Assembly: GCA_041651395.1 (NCBI GenBank)
Contig: JBAZJI010000001.1
Span: 89,169-153,168 of the forward strand
Direction: 5' to 3'
DNA from: Minisyncoccota bacterium
GTDB taxonomy: Bacteria; Patescibacteriota; Minisyncoccia; Minisyncoccales; JAGOPM01
DNA length: 64,000 nucleotides
The notes under the pieces are model-generated. The model made no database searches and was not told the origin of the DNA. It saw nothing but the letters and a program-made list of their open reading frames with translations. The translations under genes and the position numbers were made by a program. Positions 3,979 through 56,365 of the stretch are shown here, in pieces (the stretch's first letter is position 1; each line of letters begins with the position of its first letter).

Positions 3979-5427
3979 ATGGCAAATAGGCGATTTGTTA
4001 AATTTTTGATTGCGTCGGCAATTTTTTTGGTATTTTCTGGCCAAGCTTTTGCCAGTTCGCTTAAATTCAATGTTGATTCGGGTTATGATGCTTTTAAGCG
4101 TTCGACAATAAGCACGAATCTTTCCCGGGTTTCGGGACGCGCATACTTTTATATTGACAGTAATTTCTGGTCAAAACTTAATGATATCGAAAGGACAAGG
4201 GTTCATTCTGCACTTTCCGATTTGGCTCAAGAGTATGACGCGCATATTTATCCAAAGATTACCGAATTTTACGGCAGCGAATGGAATCCGGGCATTGATA
4301 AGGACCCGAAAGTCTATTTTGTATTCCATGAAATGAGCAATAATACGGCTGGTTATTTTCGGGAAAAGGACCAATACGATAAATTGCAAGTTCCCAATTC
4401 CAACCAGAAGGAGGTGGTTTTCTTAAACGCCGAATATTTGCTCTCTCCTAATATTAAGAGTTATTTGGCTCACGAATTTACCCATTTGGCTATTTTTAAT
4501 CGAAAAACTCGGATTAATGGCAATGGGGAAGAGGTTTGGGTTCAGGAATTGTTAGCTGAATATACCCCGACCCTTTTGGGTTACAACGAAGTTCCGACCG
4601 ATAATACCTATTTGGAAAAAAGAGTAAGGAAATTTACTGAAGATTCAAGCAAATCGATAGTGGACTGGCAGAATGATGCGGCCGGTTATGCGGCTGGTTC
4701 TATTTTTATCCATTATGCCGTTGATCAGTATGGCCCGGGCTTACTTAAGGCGCTTTATCGTTCGCCTTATACCGGGATAAGCGGTTTTAATGACGCTTTG
4801 CGCACGGTAGGGGCCAAGGAAAATTTCCAAGAAGTATTTAATAATTGGACTGTAGCAAATTTTTTGAATGATTGCTCTTTGAGCAGCAGTTTTTGTTACA
4901 AGAATGCCATTTTGAAGAAGATGAGAGTGGTTCCGATGGTTAATTTTTTGCCGACTAAAGGGGAAAGCAAATTTTACTTCTCTGATACAATGCCCAATTG
5001 GTCGGCCAAATGGTATAAAATAGTGGGAGGGATTGGCAATTTAAGGATTGAATTCTCTGGAAATTCTTCTGATAAGTTCGTTGTTCCCTATATTTTGCAG
5101 TCCAAAGATGGCAAGAATAAGATTGGATATATTGACTTGGCAAATAAGAATAAAGGATACTTATCGTTTGAAAATTTTGTCAAAGATAACAATTGGTTGG
5201 TTTTCATTCCTTCGGCGCAGAATATGCAGAAAAAAAACGCTCTTGAATATGAATTTAATTGGTCGGTTTACTTTACTAAATCAGCCTCGGCAAATAGTAG
5301 CCAAACGGAAAATAAAGTTAGCCAAAACGAAAAATCCAACAATAGCACCAATATTATTACAAACACTGAGAGGTTAAAGCTTCTACTCGAAATATTGCGA
5401 TTACTATTGAGTCTAAAGACTAAATAA
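3979..5427 (+). CDS. Secreted protein with an HExxH motif (putative zinc metallopeptidase)
   Basis: N-terminal signal-like segment (FLIASAIFLVFSGQAFA) and the motif LAHEFTHLA with a downstream E (VQELLAEY). No family assignment is possible by eye. Confidence 0.5.
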   Translation: MANRRFVKFLIASAIFLVFSGQAFASSLKFNVDSGYDAFKRSTISTNLSRVSGRAYFYIDSNFWSKLNDIERTRVHSALSDLAQEYDAHIYPKITEFYGSEWNPGIDKDPKVYFVFHEMSNNTAGYFREKDQYDKLQVPNSNQKEVVFLNAEYLLSPNIKSYLAHEFTHLAIFNRKTRINGNGEEVWVQELLAEYTPTLLGYNEVPTDNTYLEKRVRKFTEDSSKSIVDWQNDAAGYAAGSIFIHYAVDQYGPGLLKALYRSPYTGISGFNDALRTVGAKENFQEVFNNWTVANFLNDCSLSSSFCYKNAILKKMRVVPMVNFLPTKGESKFYFSDTMPNWSAKWYKIVGGIGNLRIEFSGNSSDKFVVPYILQSKDGKNKIGYIDLANKNKGYLSFENFVKDNNWLVFIPSAQNMQKKNALEYEFNWSVYFTKSASANSSQTENKVSQNEKSNNSTNIITNTERLKLLLEILRLLLSLKTK

Positions 5428-45792: not shown

Positions 45793-46133
45793 GCCTAAGC
45801 AAGCAAACAATCGCTCTCTATCGCAAGATTGGGGGAGGAAAGTCCGAACTTTCACCGGCCGAAAGGTTGGTTAAAAAAGTAGCGGCTAACAGCCGTCGCC
45901 CGCGAGGGTTGAGGTGCGAACAGTGACGGGTCGCAACGAAAGACGCGATCGCCCCGCAAGGGGAAGCCTTGTAGTAATGCAAGGGTGAAACGGCCAAATC
46001 CTTACTGGATGCAAGAGCAAATTCATTCGCCTTTGGGCGGATGAAAAAAAGTAGCTCGCTTGACCTGTCAGGTAACTGATCAGGCAGACAAATGATTGTT
46101 TAATACAGAATTCGGCTTATTACTTGCTTAGGC
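45793..46133 (+). ncRNA. rnpB: RNase P RNA (bacterial)
   Basis: Universally conserved GGAGGAAAGTCCG and ACAGAATTCGGCTTA blocks. P1 pairs GCCTAAGCAAG (45793-) with CTTGCTTAGGC (-46133). A GC-rich island in AT-rich DNA. Confidence 0.92.
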
Positions 46134-46205
46134 TTTTCTTAAAAGCCTAAATAGAAAATATTTGCCGGCGGCGGCCGGCAACTCAAATCCAAACTAGAGG
46201 GCAAA

Positions 46206-50518: not shown

Positions 50519-50589
50519 GCGGGTATCGTATAATGGTATTACATGACCTTCCCAAGGTTAGGACACGGGTTCGATTCCCGTTACCCGCT
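50519..50589 (+). tRNA. tRNA-Gly (anticodon CCC)
   Basis: Manual cloverleaf. Acceptor GCGGGTA/TACCCGC. Anticodon arm TGACC-TTCCCAA-GGTTA. T arm ACGGG-TTCGATT-CCCGT. Discriminator U. CCA is not encoded. Confidence 0.9.
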
Positions 50590-50591
50590 CA

Positions 50592-50724
50592 TCTGAGCCT
50601 TCCCGCAGGGAATATAATACGGGAACGGAATAGAATCGAAGACGGAGTGCCGACTGGGCGCGAGTCGGGCCTAAGAGCGCGAGCAACGGCGAGCGACTCG
50701 AAGGCGATTCCCGTTACCCGCTCA
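50592..50724 (+). other. Truncated tRNA-Gly-like module with an 86-nt GC-rich T-loop region, ending in a 20-nt repeat of the tRNA 3' end
   Basis: The 20-mer cgattcccgttacccgctca occurs at 50572-50591 and 50705-50724. 50594-50610 resembles the anticodon arm. ACGGG 50619-50623 pairs with CCCGT 50710-50714. The region is homologous to 53144-53297. Confidence 0.55.
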
Positions 50725-50863
50725 GAATTCCTTCGATTTTTCTCTTATTTGTTATTATTATTTTAACTAACAGCAAATCCGCTCAAGGCGGATTTTTCGC
50801 ATGTGGAAAAAAACTTTTGGGCAAAAGGGAAATGAGTCTATAATAAAGTAAATAACTTTGTAT

Positions 50864-52021
50864 ATGGTTACAAAGGAACTTCTTGATTATATTAAGAAAC
50901 AAATTGCCAAAGGTGTTAGCCAGGAGGATGTCAGAAAAATACTTTTGCAATACAAGTGGGCCGAGGGTGATATCGGGGAAGCTTTTAATGTTATAAATCA
51001 GGCCAATCAGCCAAAAGTTGAAAAGCCCAAGATTGAAGTAAAGCCTCTTGATGAATTTCGAACCCAGCAACAGGCGGCCAAGCCAGCCACTGTTAGCGAA
51101 GCTAAGCCTCAAGTATCGCAGGCACAACCACAAACCCAAGCGGCTCAACCCCAGTCTCAGGCCGGCCCAAAGCCTGCTCCGGCTCAACCTGTTTTGCAGT
51201 CTCAAAGGCCGCAAGCGCCCAGTATCCAAGCTAAGCCAGTGGGAGGTGCTCAGTCGTCAATACAGCCTCAACCTCAGCCGCAACCCCAAGCTCAGCAGCC
51301 TAAACCTCAGGTGCAAGTGACAGTTCAAAAGCCGGTTCTGGAGAGCAAGCCTCAAACTTCGTATCGCGAACCGGTAACCACTTCGCCCCAGGCGCAGCCT
51401 CAACCGGCCTTGCAGCCTCGTGGCGCGGGGCAAGCTAGAGGGGCGGCGCCGCAATTTAATTTTGGTCCAATAATAATAGGATTGGTAATTTTGGTAATAG
51501 TCGGCTTGGCCGGATTCTTCGGCTATAAGGCGATAAATGATGCTAAAAAGCGCGAGCCTCTTGTTAAGCCAGAACAACCTGTCGTAACTACAACCCAGCC
51601 GCAAGCTGAAACACCAAAGCCACAAGCGCCTCAGAATCTTTCCAGCCCGCAATCAGTTAGTGATGAATCGATTGTAAAAGAATTGGAAGCTGTCATTGCT
51701 TATTTCAAAAATAAATCGGCTTATTCGGCCGACGAGAAGGCGGATTTGGAACAGAGTAACGAACTGGTTAATTTATCGTTTTTCTTCCAGTTATATAATT
51801 CCAAAAATTCCAAGTATCCGGAAAATATTGGCGACATTGTTTCACTGGGGAATTATAAAATGCTTAAGGAATATTCCGTTTCAATGTATAATTTTGCATA
51901 TGGCAAGACCAATGCTGGGGAATTCCGAATTTGTGCCCAATATTCGAAAGGGTATAGGTGTTTTTTAAGTGACGACGTTTTTAGAACAAGAGCCAAGACT
52001 TATTTGAAAAATCTCAAATAA
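50864..52021 (+). CDS. Membrane-anchored protein with a short N-terminal helical domain, a P/Q-rich linker and a C-terminal extracytoplasmic domain
   Basis: The N-terminal LLDYIKKQIAKGVSQEDVRKILL domain is shared with the next gene. A QPQ/KPQ low-complexity stretch is followed by a TM (IIIGLVILVIVGLAGFFGY). First ATG at 50864; the track uses the TTG at 50858. Confidence 0.55.
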   Translation: MVTKELLDYIKKQIAKGVSQEDVRKILLQYKWAEGDIGEAFNVINQANQPKVEKPKIEVKPLDEFRTQQQAAKPATVSEAKPQVSQAQPQTQAAQPQSQAGPKPAPAQPVLQSQRPQAPSIQAKPVGGAQSSIQPQPQPQPQAQQPKPQVQVTVQKPVLESKPQTSYREPVTTSPQAQPQPALQPRGAGQARGAAPQFNFGPIIIGLVILVIVGLAGFFGYKAINDAKKREPLVKPEQPVVTTTQPQAETPKPQAPQNLSSPQSVSDESIVKELEAVIAYFKNKSAYSADEKADLEQSNELVNLSFFFQLYNSKNSKYPENIGDIVSLGNYKMLKEYSVSMYNFAYGKTNAGEFRICAQYSKGYRCFLSDDVFRTRAKTYLKNLK

Positions 52022-53006: not shown

Positions 53007-53071
53007 CTGTTGAAAAATATGCCGATTTATGTTAAGATTTTTCAACAAGGAGCAGTTATCGCCCCTCAAGA

Positions 53072-53143
53072 GCCGATCTAGCTCAACGGTAGAGCAGCGG
53101 TATCGTAAACCGCAGGTTGGAGGTTCAAATCCTCTGATCGGCT
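53072..53143 (+). tRNA. tRNA-Thr (anticodon CGU)
   Basis: Manual cloverleaf. Acceptor GCCGATC/GATCGGC. D arm GCTC-AACGGTA-GAGC. Anticodon arm GCGGT-ATCGTAA-ACCGC. Variable loop AGGTT. T arm GGAGG-TTCAAAT-CCTCT. Confidence 0.9.
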
Positions 53144-53297
53144 CCTGGGGGGCGATTGGCCTTTAGACTCTTTTGTAAAGAGGAGGTTGGGGGCTTTGCG
53201 CGTTAGCGCAAAGGGCGCAGGCGCGACCGGCGCCGAGCCGGGCCCTGAGGCACGAACAGCAGTGAGTGACCGAAGGGCAAGTCCTCTCATCGGCTCA
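53144..53297 (+). other. Truncated tRNA-Thr-like module (UGU anticodon-type hairpin) with an 89-nt GC-rich T-loop region, ending in a 15-nt repeat of the tRNA 3' end
   Basis: Hairpin ACTCT-TTTGTAA-AGAGG (53167-53183). AGGTT 53184-53188 is identical to the tRNA variable loop. GGGGG 53189-53193 pairs with CCTCT 53283-53287. tcctct[g/c]atcggctc occurs at 53130-53144 and 53282-53296. Confidence 0.55.
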
Positions 53298-53317
53298 GGT
53301 AAAATAACACCATTAAG

Positions 53318-54431
53318 ATGGAATATAATATCTACGATATCCAAGAATTAGAAAAACGCATCGTCCATCTTATGGATTGTCTTTGACTTGGAGGCTAAAG
53401 CAAAACGCATCCAAGAATTAGAAAATCTGCAGGCCTCTCCTGATTTTTGGAATGATCCTCAAGAGGCGGCCAAGTTGCAAAAGGAGCTCTCCGACACCAA
53501 AGACGAGCTCGAAACCATAAAAGATCTGCAAAAAGAATCCAAAGAAATTGGGGAGCTTTTTGAGATGGCTCAAACGGATTCTAGTTTGCAGGAGGAATTG
53601 GATAAACATATCTCAGAGCTTAAGAAGAAGATTGAAAAGCAAGAAATGAAAGTATTTTTGTCCGGCAAATACGATAAGGGGGATGCAATCTTAAGTATTA
53701 ATTCCGGGGCAGGCGGCAACGAAGCCGAGGATTGGGCTTCTATGCTTTCTCGGATGTATCAAAGATGGGCCGACAAAAAAGGTTTTAGCATTTCTATCTT
53801 AGATGAAAGCCGGGGAGAGGTTAGCCCCGAAACCGGAAAAGCGGGGCTCAAGAGTATTTCCATGGAAATATCCGGAAAATATGCTTACGGCTATTTGCAT
53901 AAAGAGAGTGGCGTACATCGTTTAGTGCGTATTAGTCCATTTTCAGCCCAAAGCTTGAGACACACTTCTTTTGCTGGTGTTGAAGTGATGCCGCTCATTT
54001 CTGATATCGATGCGAAGTCTTTTGAGCTGAATCCGGCCGAAATCCGGATGGAAACTAGCAAATCTGGTGGAGCGGGCGGGCAAAATGTGAATAAGCGCGA
54101 AACGGCTGTTAGGATAGTGCATATACCAAGCAATATTGCTGTAACTTGTTCAAGTGAACGTTCACAGTTGCTCAACCGTGAAAAAGCGATTAAAATACTC
54201 AAGAGCAAACTGTTTCAATTAAAAGAGCAGGAGAGGCAGGAAGAAATTTCCAAGATGAAGGGCGAGAGGCGGAGTGTGGATTTTGGTAGCCAGATTAGGA
54301 GCTATGTATTGCACCCCTATAAGTTAGTTAAGGATTTACGTACCGATTATGAAACGAGCCAAGCCGAGGGAGTACTAGACGGAGATTTGGATGGATTCAT
54401 AGAGGCAGAGCTCAAAGATACAAGCATATGA
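53318..54431 (+). CDS. prfB: Peptide chain release factor 2 with a programmed +1 frameshift (join 53318..53383, 53385..54431)
   Basis: Frame 0 reads MEYNIYDIQELEKRIVHLMDCL and stops at CTT TGA C (53381-53387). The +1 frame continues DLEAKAKRIQELE. SPF (RISPFS) and GGQ (GAGGQNVNK) motifs are present. Confidence 0.93.
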
Positions 54432-56087: not shown

Positions 56088-56158
56088 TGCGGGATCGTCT
56101 AATGGTAGGACGACGGACTCTGAATCCGTTAATCTTGGTTCGAATCCAAGTCCCGCAA
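56088..56158 (+). tRNA. tRNA-Gln (anticodon CUG)
   Basis: Manual cloverleaf. Acceptor TGCGGGA/TCCCGCA. Anticodon arm ACGGA-CTCTGAA-TCCGT. T arm CTTGG-TTCGAAT-CCAAG. Confidence 0.88.
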
Positions 56159-56161
56159 CAT

Positions 56162-56197
56162 AAGCAAAAGGCGCCACAACGTGGCGCTTTTTGCTTA
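56162..56197. terminator. Long perfect hairpin terminator
   Basis: AAGCAAAAGGCGCCAC / GTGGCGCTTTTTGCTT, a stem of about 16 bp with loop AAC. Confidence 0.8.
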
Positions 56198-56365
56198 TTT
56201 CTGACGCTAGACTTTTGATTCGAACAAGAATCCTTTGCTTTGGTAAAGGCAGAAGGGGTCGGGGAGATTTTAAGGAAATTTCCCCTAGTAACGGCCTAAA
56301 AATCATTAATCCCGAAAAAGCGGTTGAAAAAGCTTCCAAAATGGCGCAAGAGCAATAGCTAAAGT

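Follow-up and report, generated by a model that had tools for sequence, protein, structure and literature searches.

The subject of this analysis is a 64,000-nucleotide stretch of DNA (the window) from an ultra-small Candidatus Paceibacterota bacterium (Patescibacteria, or candidate phyla radiation, CPR), with a guanine-plus-cytosine (GC) content of 41%. Between its tRNA-Thr(CGU) gene and prfB, alignment with relatives identifies a tRNA-Thr(CGU) gene of nearly full length, an older allele now decayed (53151-53295), in which the T-loop bases T54-T55 have given way to 84 nucleotides (nt) of GC-rich, folded sequence. This insert contains an element with two hairpins, called X here, and the decayed gene together with its insert is called the Thr module. 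With a probability of about one half, the best explanation is that the module is the relic of a tRNA gene replacement, bearing a T-loop-specific, structured and probably selfish mini-element. It is best filed within a pattern, seen across the clade, of selfish turnover of tRNA genes, and the evidence as a whole points to X as an undescribed T-loop-specific, GC-rich structured element, or RNA fold, tied to that turnover.

Relatives were sampled through homologues of prfB and members of its 90% cluster, and clade-wide statements cover loci fetched from the host lineage and from related Patescibacteria lineages. Three sources recur below: a sister lineage (L093-L100, L104; 88.5% DNA identity to the window over prfB-ftsE), a close relative (L001; 89.6% DNA identity to the window) and a more distant relative (L105; prfB 75% identical). 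X was traced with a covariance model, R1, built from hairpins A and B of two Thr copies (window and sister). The locus, on the forward strand, reads as follows.

53010..53038, forward strand, putative promoter TTGAAA-17-TAAGAT upstream of tRNA-Thr (consensus scan)
53072..53145, forward strand, functional tRNA-Thr(CGU), the 'new' allele (ARAGORN; Rfam tRNA, 67 bits)
53148..53164, forward strand, linker hairpin GGGGC-gattg-GCCTT (RNAalifold, window and L093), overlapping the acceptor 5' remnant of the old gene
53151..53295, forward strand, pseudo-tRNA-Thr(CGU), decayed older allele (alignment to the intact L105 tRNA), with the following parts
53151-57, forward strand, acceptor 5' remnant GGCGATT
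53158-66, forward strand, D-arm remnant
53167-83, forward strand, anticodon arm (now TGT)
53184-88, forward strand, variable loop
53189-93, forward strand, T-stem 5' strand
53194..53277, forward strand, GC-rich insert replacing T54-T55, a multi-helix junction closed by the T stem (RNAalifold with L093)
53194..53213, forward strand, hairpin 0, CTTTGCGC-gtta-GCGCAAAG, 8 base pairs (bp), restricted to Thr copies
53227..53278, forward strand, element X, about 52 nt, two hairpins (R1, 80.3 bits)
53227-53241, forward strand, X hairpin A, CCGGC-gccga-GCCGG (RNAalifold, R1)
53242-53278, forward strand, X hairpin B, GCCCU-GA-GG-CAC-GA-AC-agca-GU-GA-GUG-a-CC-GA-AGGGC, whose closing C is tRNA position 56
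53278-82, forward strand, T-loop remnant CAAGT
53283-87, forward strand, T-stem 3' strand
53288-94, forward strand, acceptor 3' strand CATCGGC
53295, forward strand, discriminator T
53318..54431, forward strand, prfB (release factor 2), with ATG at 53318 and a +1 frameshift site CTT TGA C at 53381-53387

The Thr module is real and reproducible. An assembly artefact, which a preliminary description of the locus had asked to be checked, is excluded: the window sequence is reproduced identically in an independent 951,739-bp ENA assembly and a Logan contig (L091, L092), and diverged orthologues of the module occur in at least eight further assemblies (L093-L100, L104).

The signs of a second tRNA that the preliminary description had noticed are all in place. 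tcctctgatcggctc (53130-53144) recurs at 53282-53296 with 14 of 15 bases identical, or, counted from C56, as a repeat of 19 nt with two mismatches (17/19). Moreover, an anticodon arm ACTCT-TTTGTAA-AGAGG with U33, TGT and A37 in its loop occupies 53167-53183, and AGGTT (53184-53188), GGGGG (53189-53193) and CCTCT (53283-53287) complete the picture. The identity assigned to these parts, a tRNA-Thr(UGU), does not stand. The prfB locus of L105 holds a single intact tRNA-Thr(CGU), directly 5' of prfB, whose stems are those of the module (anticodon ACTCT/AGAGT, T stem GGGGG/CCCTT, acceptor GCCGATG/CATCGGC). The working tRNA-Thr of the window is built from other stems, namely GCGGT/ACCGC, GGAGG/CCTCT and GCCGATC/GATCGGC, respectively, and L001 and L093 also carry this new-allele type. 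Without its insert, the window module is identical to the L105 gene at 53/61 positions (87%) vs 49/63 (78%) for the adjacent functional tRNA; for the sister module, the corresponding values are 87% and 73%. The anticodon stem matches the L105 gene at 9/10 positions and the acceptor 3' strand at 7/7. In the sister lineage, the module (CTTTCGTAAAG) has the loop TTCGTAA and therefore the anticodon CGT. From the L105 stems and the difference in identity, it follows that the module is, on this alignment, a decayed tRNA-Thr(CGU), and that TGT in the window strain is a C34-to-T substitution in a dead gene.

The damage to this gene is extensive. Its D arm is cut to 9 nt, the acceptor has two mismatches, and the first anticodon-stem pair (27-43) is broken in both lineages. 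Neither ARAGORN nor Rfam calls a tRNA at 53151-53295; the functional neighbor scores 67 bits against an RF00005 threshold of 29 and folds into a cloverleaf with a canonical T-loop. The earlier statement that no 5' acceptor strand or D arm precedes the module is right in that the D arm is mostly deleted, but a degenerate GGCGATT (53151-53157) and a D-arm stub do align to the L105 gene. The view that the module is a Thr(UGU)-like 3' portion, whether derived from a second isoacceptor or representing an unusual or split tRNA-Thr(UGU), draws on the loop TTTGTAA with U33 and A37 in the window strain. It is extremely improbable, as the sister lineage has TTCGTAA, L105 has an intact CGU gene built from the module's stems, the first anticodon-stem pair is broken in both lineages, the D arm is lacking, and T54-T55 are lost and are not restored by removal of the insert. 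A functional split, permuted or intron-containing tRNA was rejected as well, as the matching 5' half (GCCGATG.. with a D arm) is not in the window and T54-T55 are unrestorable.

The insert itself is sharply set off by composition. The stretches 3' of tRNA-Gly and tRNA-Thr reach 60-69% GC vs 41% for the window, and X has 73% vs 41% for the genome. The preliminary description had placed an 89-nt insert, 61 of them G or C, in the T-loop; the place and the count of 61/89 are correct, but the foreign part is only 84 nt (53194-53277), because CAAGT (53278-53282) is the remainder of the T-loop. Fold z-scores against shuffled sequences are about -3.3 and -3.5 for the Thr and Gly modules. Independently of R1, RNAalifold on the window and sister copies predicts hairpin 0, a short helix, and hairpins A and B within a junction closed by the T stem. 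The 8-bp hairpin 0, noted previously as an extra feature of this copy, is present in Thr copies only, and the sister copy differs from it at a single loop base, hence there is no covariation to assess.

For X, there is comparative evidence of a maintained fold. With filters off, R1 finds only two significant places in the window, 53227-53278 (80 bits) and 50650-50705 (28 bits, E 4e-4), and across X copies the scores are 80, 82, 66 and 28 bits; the reverse strand of X reaches about 14 bits. The similarity of the Thr and Gly inserts, first counted by hand, survives a proper control: the local alignment score is 32 vs 15.8 +/- 2.7 for shuffled sequences, and 0/1000 shuffles reach 32. Both helices named earlier as covarying are real, and the compensatory pattern becomes much stronger with more copies. 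In four distinct full X copies, 93% of cells are paired and 7/14 pairs of hairpin B are changed on both sides; this result is matched in 0/500 shuffles, and the count in slid controls is 0-2. Between the window and sister (L093) Thr copies, all stem substitutions keep pairing, for instance CAC/GUG to CGC/GCG, and a tandem G-A/A-G becomes two U-A pairs. In contrast to the stem, which is free to vary, the unpaired parts of hairpin B are conserved, i.e., the internal loops UGA/GAA, a bulged A and an ANCN tetraloop. G-U pairs of X are confined to the tRNA strand, which places the fold on the forward strand. In other words, as far as comparative sequence evidence goes, X is a selected forward-strand fold with conserved unpaired bases.

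The same architecture follows tRNA-Gly, as the preliminary description had recognized, with a homologous insert at the same T-loop position, and a scan for a second downstream copy of each tRNA 3' tail revealed further modules 3' of tRNA-Gln in relatives. The corresponding features of the window are these.

50519..50590, forward strand, functional tRNA-Gly(CCC) (ARAGORN, Rfam)
50591..50724, forward strand, 5'-truncated pseudo-tRNA-Gly: decayed anticodon arm CCTTCCCG, T-stem 5' strand ACGGG (50619-23), insert, CGATTCCCGTTACCCGCTCA (50705-24)
50650..50705, forward strand, X in the Gly module: hairpin A CCGACT-gggcgcg-AGTCGG, hairpin B GCC-uaaga..GAAGGC (R1, 28 bits, E 4e-4)
56088-56159, tRNA-Gln(CUG) (ARAGORN, Rfam)

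These two tRNAs and tRNA-Thr(CGU) are the three called in the window (ARAGORN; Rfam). The Gly repeat CGATTCCCGTTACCCGCTCA at 50705-24 equals 50572-91 at 20/20 positions, and the sister lineage holds an orthologous pseudo-tRNA-Gly. In the Gln modules of L095 and L097, hairpins A and B come after a decayed anticodon arm and lead into CGAATCCAAGTCCCG, which is tRNA-Gln from C56 on; the L095 copy scores 65.9 bits with R1. In L101, hairpin B is followed by GACTCC.., likewise beginning at C56. The junction thus reads ..GAAGG(G)|C56-R57-A58 in Thr, Gly, Gln of L095 and Gln of L101, so that X is inserted between G53 and C56 in redundant copies of at least three different tRNA genes. L095 also has three insert-plus-tRNA-3'-end units in succession. 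Between its two X copies (1948-1999 and 5038-5089), hairpin A is the same, as are the bulged A, the AGCA loop and the internal loop UGA/GAA, but 6/9 inner stem pairs differ, all of them compensated.

The shared position also bears on whether neutral decay could explain the locus, that is, slippage-born tandem duplicates with random GC-rich filler, in which gene conversion would account for the similarity between loci. A simple tandem duplication of tRNA-Gln including its 3' flank does exist in L002, and relics with interrupted repeats would resist deletion, which would create a survivorship bias. Yet X lies at the same nucleotide in three tRNA families; different tRNAs share the T-loop only, which is too little homology for conversion. 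Furthermore, all stem substitutions preserve pairing, and the Thr relic is a different allele from its neighbor rather than a recent local duplicate. Neutral decay is therefore very improbable. The preliminary description had taken the shared insertion point and the compensatory changes as signs of a selected structure or a site-specific element, and this is a reasonable reading of the same T-loop position, the homologous inserts and the compensated helices, with the reservation that mobility is something we infer.

The region 3' of tRNA-Gln is hypervariable (window 56160-56260; L093 8850-9010; L095 4960-5210; L101 2908-3112). In the window it holds a decayed tRNA-Gln remnant, gacgctagacttttgattcgaacaagaatcc, without X. 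Even where the prfB protein is identical, strains have entirely different sequence between tRNA-Gln and a fixed distal ..ACTGAAGGGCGAATCCAAGTC, the decayed 3' end of a tRNA-Gln.

As to distribution, the preliminary description had held that absence from the orthologous tRNAs of related genomes would tell against the element, and the outcome is mixed. L002, L005, L105 and even the close relative L001 have no Thr module (in L001, a new-type tRNA-Thr is followed directly by the prfB leader), and two sister lineages keep it. L002 and L005 also have no module 3' of tRNA-Gly, and L002 has a 5' fragment upstream of that gene instead. The sister Gly module is without about 62 nt (window 50642-50703), nearly all of X, in a gap bounded by TCGAAG repeats, and it retains ..TCGAAGGCGATTCC, including the last 8 nt of X. 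The Gln copy of X is present in L095 and L097 and absent in L093 and L104, despite an identical prfB protein. Present in some close strains and absent from others, the Thr module is lineage-restricted, and both it and X are dispensable to the host.

This patchiness speaks against the main rival explanation, a functional chimeric RNA, in which the tRNA T stem and 3' strand would serve as a scaffold or processing handle for an X with a host role, e.g., as a protein-binding or processing signal. Such a role is possible, if doubtful. In its favor are the covariation combined with conserved internal loops, bulged A and ANCN tetraloop, the restriction of G-U pairs to the tRNA strand, the T-stem-like closing helix kept in both lineages, the position of the module inside a probable tRNA-prfB unit without an internal promoter-like site, and the retention of the Thr module across about 11% DNA divergence. 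However, near-identical strains differ (loss in L001, deletion of X from the sister Gly module, polymorphism of the Gln X within one species), and the downstream context varies by locus, being a prfB leader, a terminator or more relics. Parts of the supposed scaffold, the anticodon arm and the acceptor 5' strand, are visibly decaying. Additionally, the Thr modules of the window and L093 diverge by roughly 16% (hand count), about as much as neighboring non-coding DNA apart from the pairing constraint.

Relic-plus-insert arrangements prove to be common in this clade. Intact tRNA genes often stand beside truncated copies, and nearly every truncated copy examined carries a GC-rich hairpin insert, the decayed Gln remnant of the window being the exception; none of the intact tRNAs examined has one. 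A second insert family consists of near-perfect palindromes, (CCTGCC)n..(GGCAGG)n, which, among the loci fetched, are confined to truncated tRNA copies. As pure insertions they have neither duplicated nor deleted any target sequence, and none occurs in the window. L002 has them in D loops: in a tRNA-Gly 5' fragment that precedes the intact gene, in an old-type tRNA-Thr 5' half and in a second, near-complete tRNA-Gln. Others are found in a tRNA-Gln 5' fragment of L001 and in the T-stem 3' strand of the sister Gly and Thr modules, and L101 has palindrome variants in its Thr and Gln modules. Their positions are as follows.

L002, 949-1000, 3513-3555 and 9360-9375, palindromes
L093, 3290-3310 and 5895-5925, palindromes
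L101, 1-30 and 3050-3095, palindromes
L001, 2855-2884, palindrome

Some of these fragments are separated from the intact gene by a nuclease gene. In L002, an old-type tRNA-Thr 5' half ending in the anticodon loop is followed by an 80-amino-acid GIY-YIG open reading frame (PF01541, 45.7 bits) and the intact tRNA-Thr, and L001 has a frameshifted GIY-YIG homologue flanked by a 16-nt 5' fragment of tRNA-Gln on one side and the intact tRNA-Gln on the other. The family has 50 database relatives, all of about 80 amino acids. Two of them, from other Patescibacteria, were sampled for context and show the same layout: L107 has a tRNA-Asn 5' half with a D-loop palindrome, GIY-YIG and an intact tRNA-Asn, and L117 and L118 have the equivalent cassette at another tRNA, one not called by ARAGORN. 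From its position, the GIY-YIG reading frame of such a cassette would be expressed from the tRNA promoter. Each of the following spans comprises a tRNA 5' fragment with a palindrome in or near the D loop, a GIY-YIG reading frame of about 80 amino acids and an intact tRNA of the same kind.

L002, 3480-3892
L001, 2848-3204
L107, 1415-1809
L117, 1440-1800
L118, 1365-1770

Two further details concern L117. A gene of the 23S_rRNA_IVP family (969-1343) lies just upstream of the cassette, and the tRNA copy 3' of it (1760-1830), missed by ARAGORN, may be interrupted in the anticodon loop.

Taken together, these layouts suggest how the Thr locus may have arisen under the preferred explanation, replacement of a tRNA gene. 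Of the two tandem tRNA-Thr(CGU) alleles, the upstream one is the working gene, and the downstream one is the lineage's older resident, now dead. In this Paceibacterota clade, tRNA genes would repeatedly be broken and replaced by selfish DNA; the cut genes would be repaired from donors that bring a replacement copy, leaving the resident gene as a relic. X would be a small non-autonomous structured element that enters the T-loop break or is copied there. With a donor carrying a tRNA followed by a relic with X, gap repair would move the whole module and restore a working tRNA, and repeated rounds could stack units as in L095. We infer this order of events, and a link between X and a nuclease, from the arrangements described above. 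The loss of exactly T54-T55 fits the trimming of a 2-nt 3' overhang, such as a GIY-YIG-type cut would leave. One report describes SegB, a T4 GIY-YIG enzyme, as cutting in a tRNA gene region with 2-nt 3' overhangs and as driving co-conversion of flanking tRNA genes (PMC2330249).

In a more specific form, tentative and rather unlikely, X would be a non-autonomous element or nuclease-recognition fold that homes to the universally conserved tRNA T-loop. A trans-acting endonuclease, possibly a minimal GIY-YIG, would cut at G53/T54-T55/C56, an X-bearing donor would repair the break, and each round would yield a fresh tRNA and an X-capped relic; the unpaired bases would then be a protein-recognition signal.

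The likeness to SegB lies in the relatives, which have a GIY-YIG gene of about 80 amino acids beside an intact tRNA and a displaced tRNA fragment on its other side. The differences are that no nuclease gene turned up in the window (tblastn with a GIY-YIG query) or beside any X copy, that the CPR GIY-YIG proteins amount to a minimal catalytic domain and have no obvious DNA-binding domain, that cleavage of tRNA genes by them is hypothetical, and that neither hairpin inserts nor tRNA relics are known from SegB loci.

Another source of partial tRNA repeats is site-specific integration. Attachment (att) sites located in the T-loop are a known class, and tRNA pseudogenes or partial tRNA repeats are left at tRNA-linked integration hotspots as remnants of such sites. 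Accordingly, the intact tRNA could be read as attL, the repeated 3' end as attR and the roughly 150 nt between them as the remnant of an element, with X as the attR-side arm. The direct repetition of the tRNA 3' end from the T-loop on (20/20 in Gly, 17/19 in Thr), the hypervariable content between tRNA-Gln and a fixed distal partial repeat, and the stacked partial repeats of L095 are consistent with this, and the general likeness extends to the partial 3' copies, one or more, behind an intact tRNA and to the variable content that separates them. An integrase scar is nevertheless improbable. Upstream of X, the same old allele contributes its anticodon arm, variable loop and T-stem 5' strand; contiguous tRNA of one allele flanks X (with both T-stem strands in L093), which argues that X is inside one gene and does not mark a junction between element and host. 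The relic is thus a near-complete older allele with an internal insert. Moreover, at none of the loci was an integrase or an element body seen, there is no open reading frame between the repeats, and viral contig scans and phage and plasmid comparisons gave no matches. Finally, 5' fragments occur upstream of intact genes, and the L002 duplications also take in such fragments and flanks.

Searches for relatives of X covered several collections. Rfam 15 has nothing for the Thr or Gly insert, even at E <=10; matches above the gathering threshold in the window are the three tRNAs and RNase P only. Pattern scans for hairpin B gave 0 matches in IMG/VR, 38 in JGI metagenomes, all chance-like in GC-rich coding DNA, and 47 in GTDB genomes, most of them single in high-GC genomes and close to chance expectation. 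The GTDB exceptions are a multi-copy repeat in one Clostridia metagenome-assembled genome (MAG) and one Eubacteriales MAG. The first pattern required a tandem G-A that was later found to be variable; the scans therefore under-sample the X family, and absence elsewhere is weakly supported. Six-frame translation of X against a protein database gave no match, and blastn of the module found nothing in phages and only a 30-nt chance match in plasmids.

The two exceptional MAGs (Clostridia Lapin-033 bin51: L020, L023, L025, L039, L041, L043, L048, L052; Eubacteriales: L010, L028) carry a multi-hairpin intergenic repeat of about 130 nt. The repeat contains GCACGAGCnnnnGCGAGTGAC-G-GAAGG after another hairpin, the same 27-nt motif as hairpin B of X. 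R1 does not reach this repeat, which has no nearby tRNA and no Rfam family.

A number of observations weigh against a selfish, mobile X. Only two copies occur in 64 kilobases, both at tRNAs, X has been seen only in a narrow clade, and the GTDB, JGI and IMG/VR scans yielded no further convincing copy. No endonuclease, recombinase or transposase gene adjoins any X copy, and tblastn with a GIY-YIG query found no homolog in the window. A miniature inverted-repeat transposable element or other transposon was rejected, as terminal inverted repeats are missing from X and a target duplication is not consistently present, with TCGAAG flanking the Gly indel only. The evidence of mobility is presence and absence, which loss could equally produce; in the sister Gly module, the retained end of X indicates a deletion and not an unoccupied site. 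In addition, the covariation set comprises four distinct sequences only, aligned to the model, and the conserved unpaired bases could equally mean a host RNA function.

Other identities for X were also rejected. A group I or other self-splicing tRNA intron has no Rfam core match, and removing the insert leaves G53-C56 without T54-T55. A hammerhead fails on invariant bases missing in the Gly copy, and a kink-turn fails since other copies have Watson-Crick pairs in place of the inner tandem G-A. The hairpin-B stem shows no consistent match that would make it a guide to the cognate tRNA; one 8-mer matches in the Gln module, with a chance expectation of about 0.04.

Among known systems, the double-hairpin elements of mitochondrial genomes form a comparable class. 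In AT-rich mitochondrial genomes, GC clusters and repetitive hairpin-forming elements (PMC4478555, PMC2800124) resemble X in being short, GC-rich, non-coding hairpins of a compact AT-rich genome, variable among strains, whose fold is kept by compensatory change. There is no sequence relation, however, and the mitochondrial elements are numerous and mostly intergenic, whereas very few copies of X have been seen, all at one position of tRNA relics. With regard to introns, those of Patescibacteria tRNAs, reported as group I introns at 35/36 (PMC13011429), are alike in interrupting a tRNA gene in the same phylum. For archaeal non-canonical tRNA introns, a position in the T arm is possible. X differs from tRNA introns in its length of 52-84 nt without a group I core or an Rfam match, and in occupying the T-loop, not the anticodon loop; taking it out would not restore T54-T55, and the copy that carries it has also lost the D arm. 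Neither X nor the GIY-YIG/tRNA cassettes were described in the literature searched.

If the replacement explanation is true, the tRNA genes of reduced Patescibacteria genomes are active battlegrounds for selfish DNA, and the question arises whether the widespread small stand-alone GIY-YIG proteins cut tRNA genes. If X is merely a passenger, it is still a clean covarying fold outside Rfam. For annotation, the relics matter because they mimic extra isoacceptors, e.g., a false Thr-UGU. They also matter for assembly, as several short-read contigs end inside these tRNA and module regions. In L101, L102 and L103 and in L001 and L092, position 1 of independent short-read contigs falls on the same base, either within the Thr module or within the tRNA D loop; the module-free L001 contig derives from SRR29400112. 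Repeats or strain mixtures seem to interrupt assembly at these elements, which suggests that such loci may be under-represented among MAGs.

The module also alters the leader of an essential gene, prfB. The ATG at 53318 lies 21 nt 3' of the module, as stated previously, and prfB begins 16-20 nt after tRNA-Thr in L001, L005 and L105, all without the module. This short spacing suggests a tRNA-prfB co-transcript. L105 has TTGAAA..TAGCAT at the position matching the putative window promoter, and the consensus scan found no second promoter-like site between 53010..53038 and prfB. The sole promoter-like site and the spacing together indicate that prfB is probably read from the tRNA-Thr promoter through the module, which would then be transcribed within the prfB leader. 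Within this unit, the linker hairpin has some comparative support: in L093, a G-C pair becomes A-U by changes on both sides, and two G-U pairs become Watson-Crick pairs. It is also picked up, weakly, by a terminator-like scan. A helix between leader and trailer, ATCGCCCC (53058-65) with GGGGCGAT (53149-56), was rejected; it shows one compensatory and one disruptive change, and the competing linker hairpin fits the substitutions better.

Several smaller observations concern the surroundings. U is nearly universal at tRNA position 55, and the functional tRNA-Gly(CCC) of L093 (3157-3228) and L005 (324-395) has C there, in the T-loop TCCGATT. Gene content between tRNA-Gly and tRNA-Thr varies among relatives. 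In the window, this interval holds a 387-amino-acid open reading frame (50858-52021) without a Pfam match, inside which 51050-51460 has 55-68% GC. Lastly, the RNase P RNA of the window (45795-46135, bacterial class A) scores 109 bits vs a threshold of 100 and is probably a divergent or reduced form.

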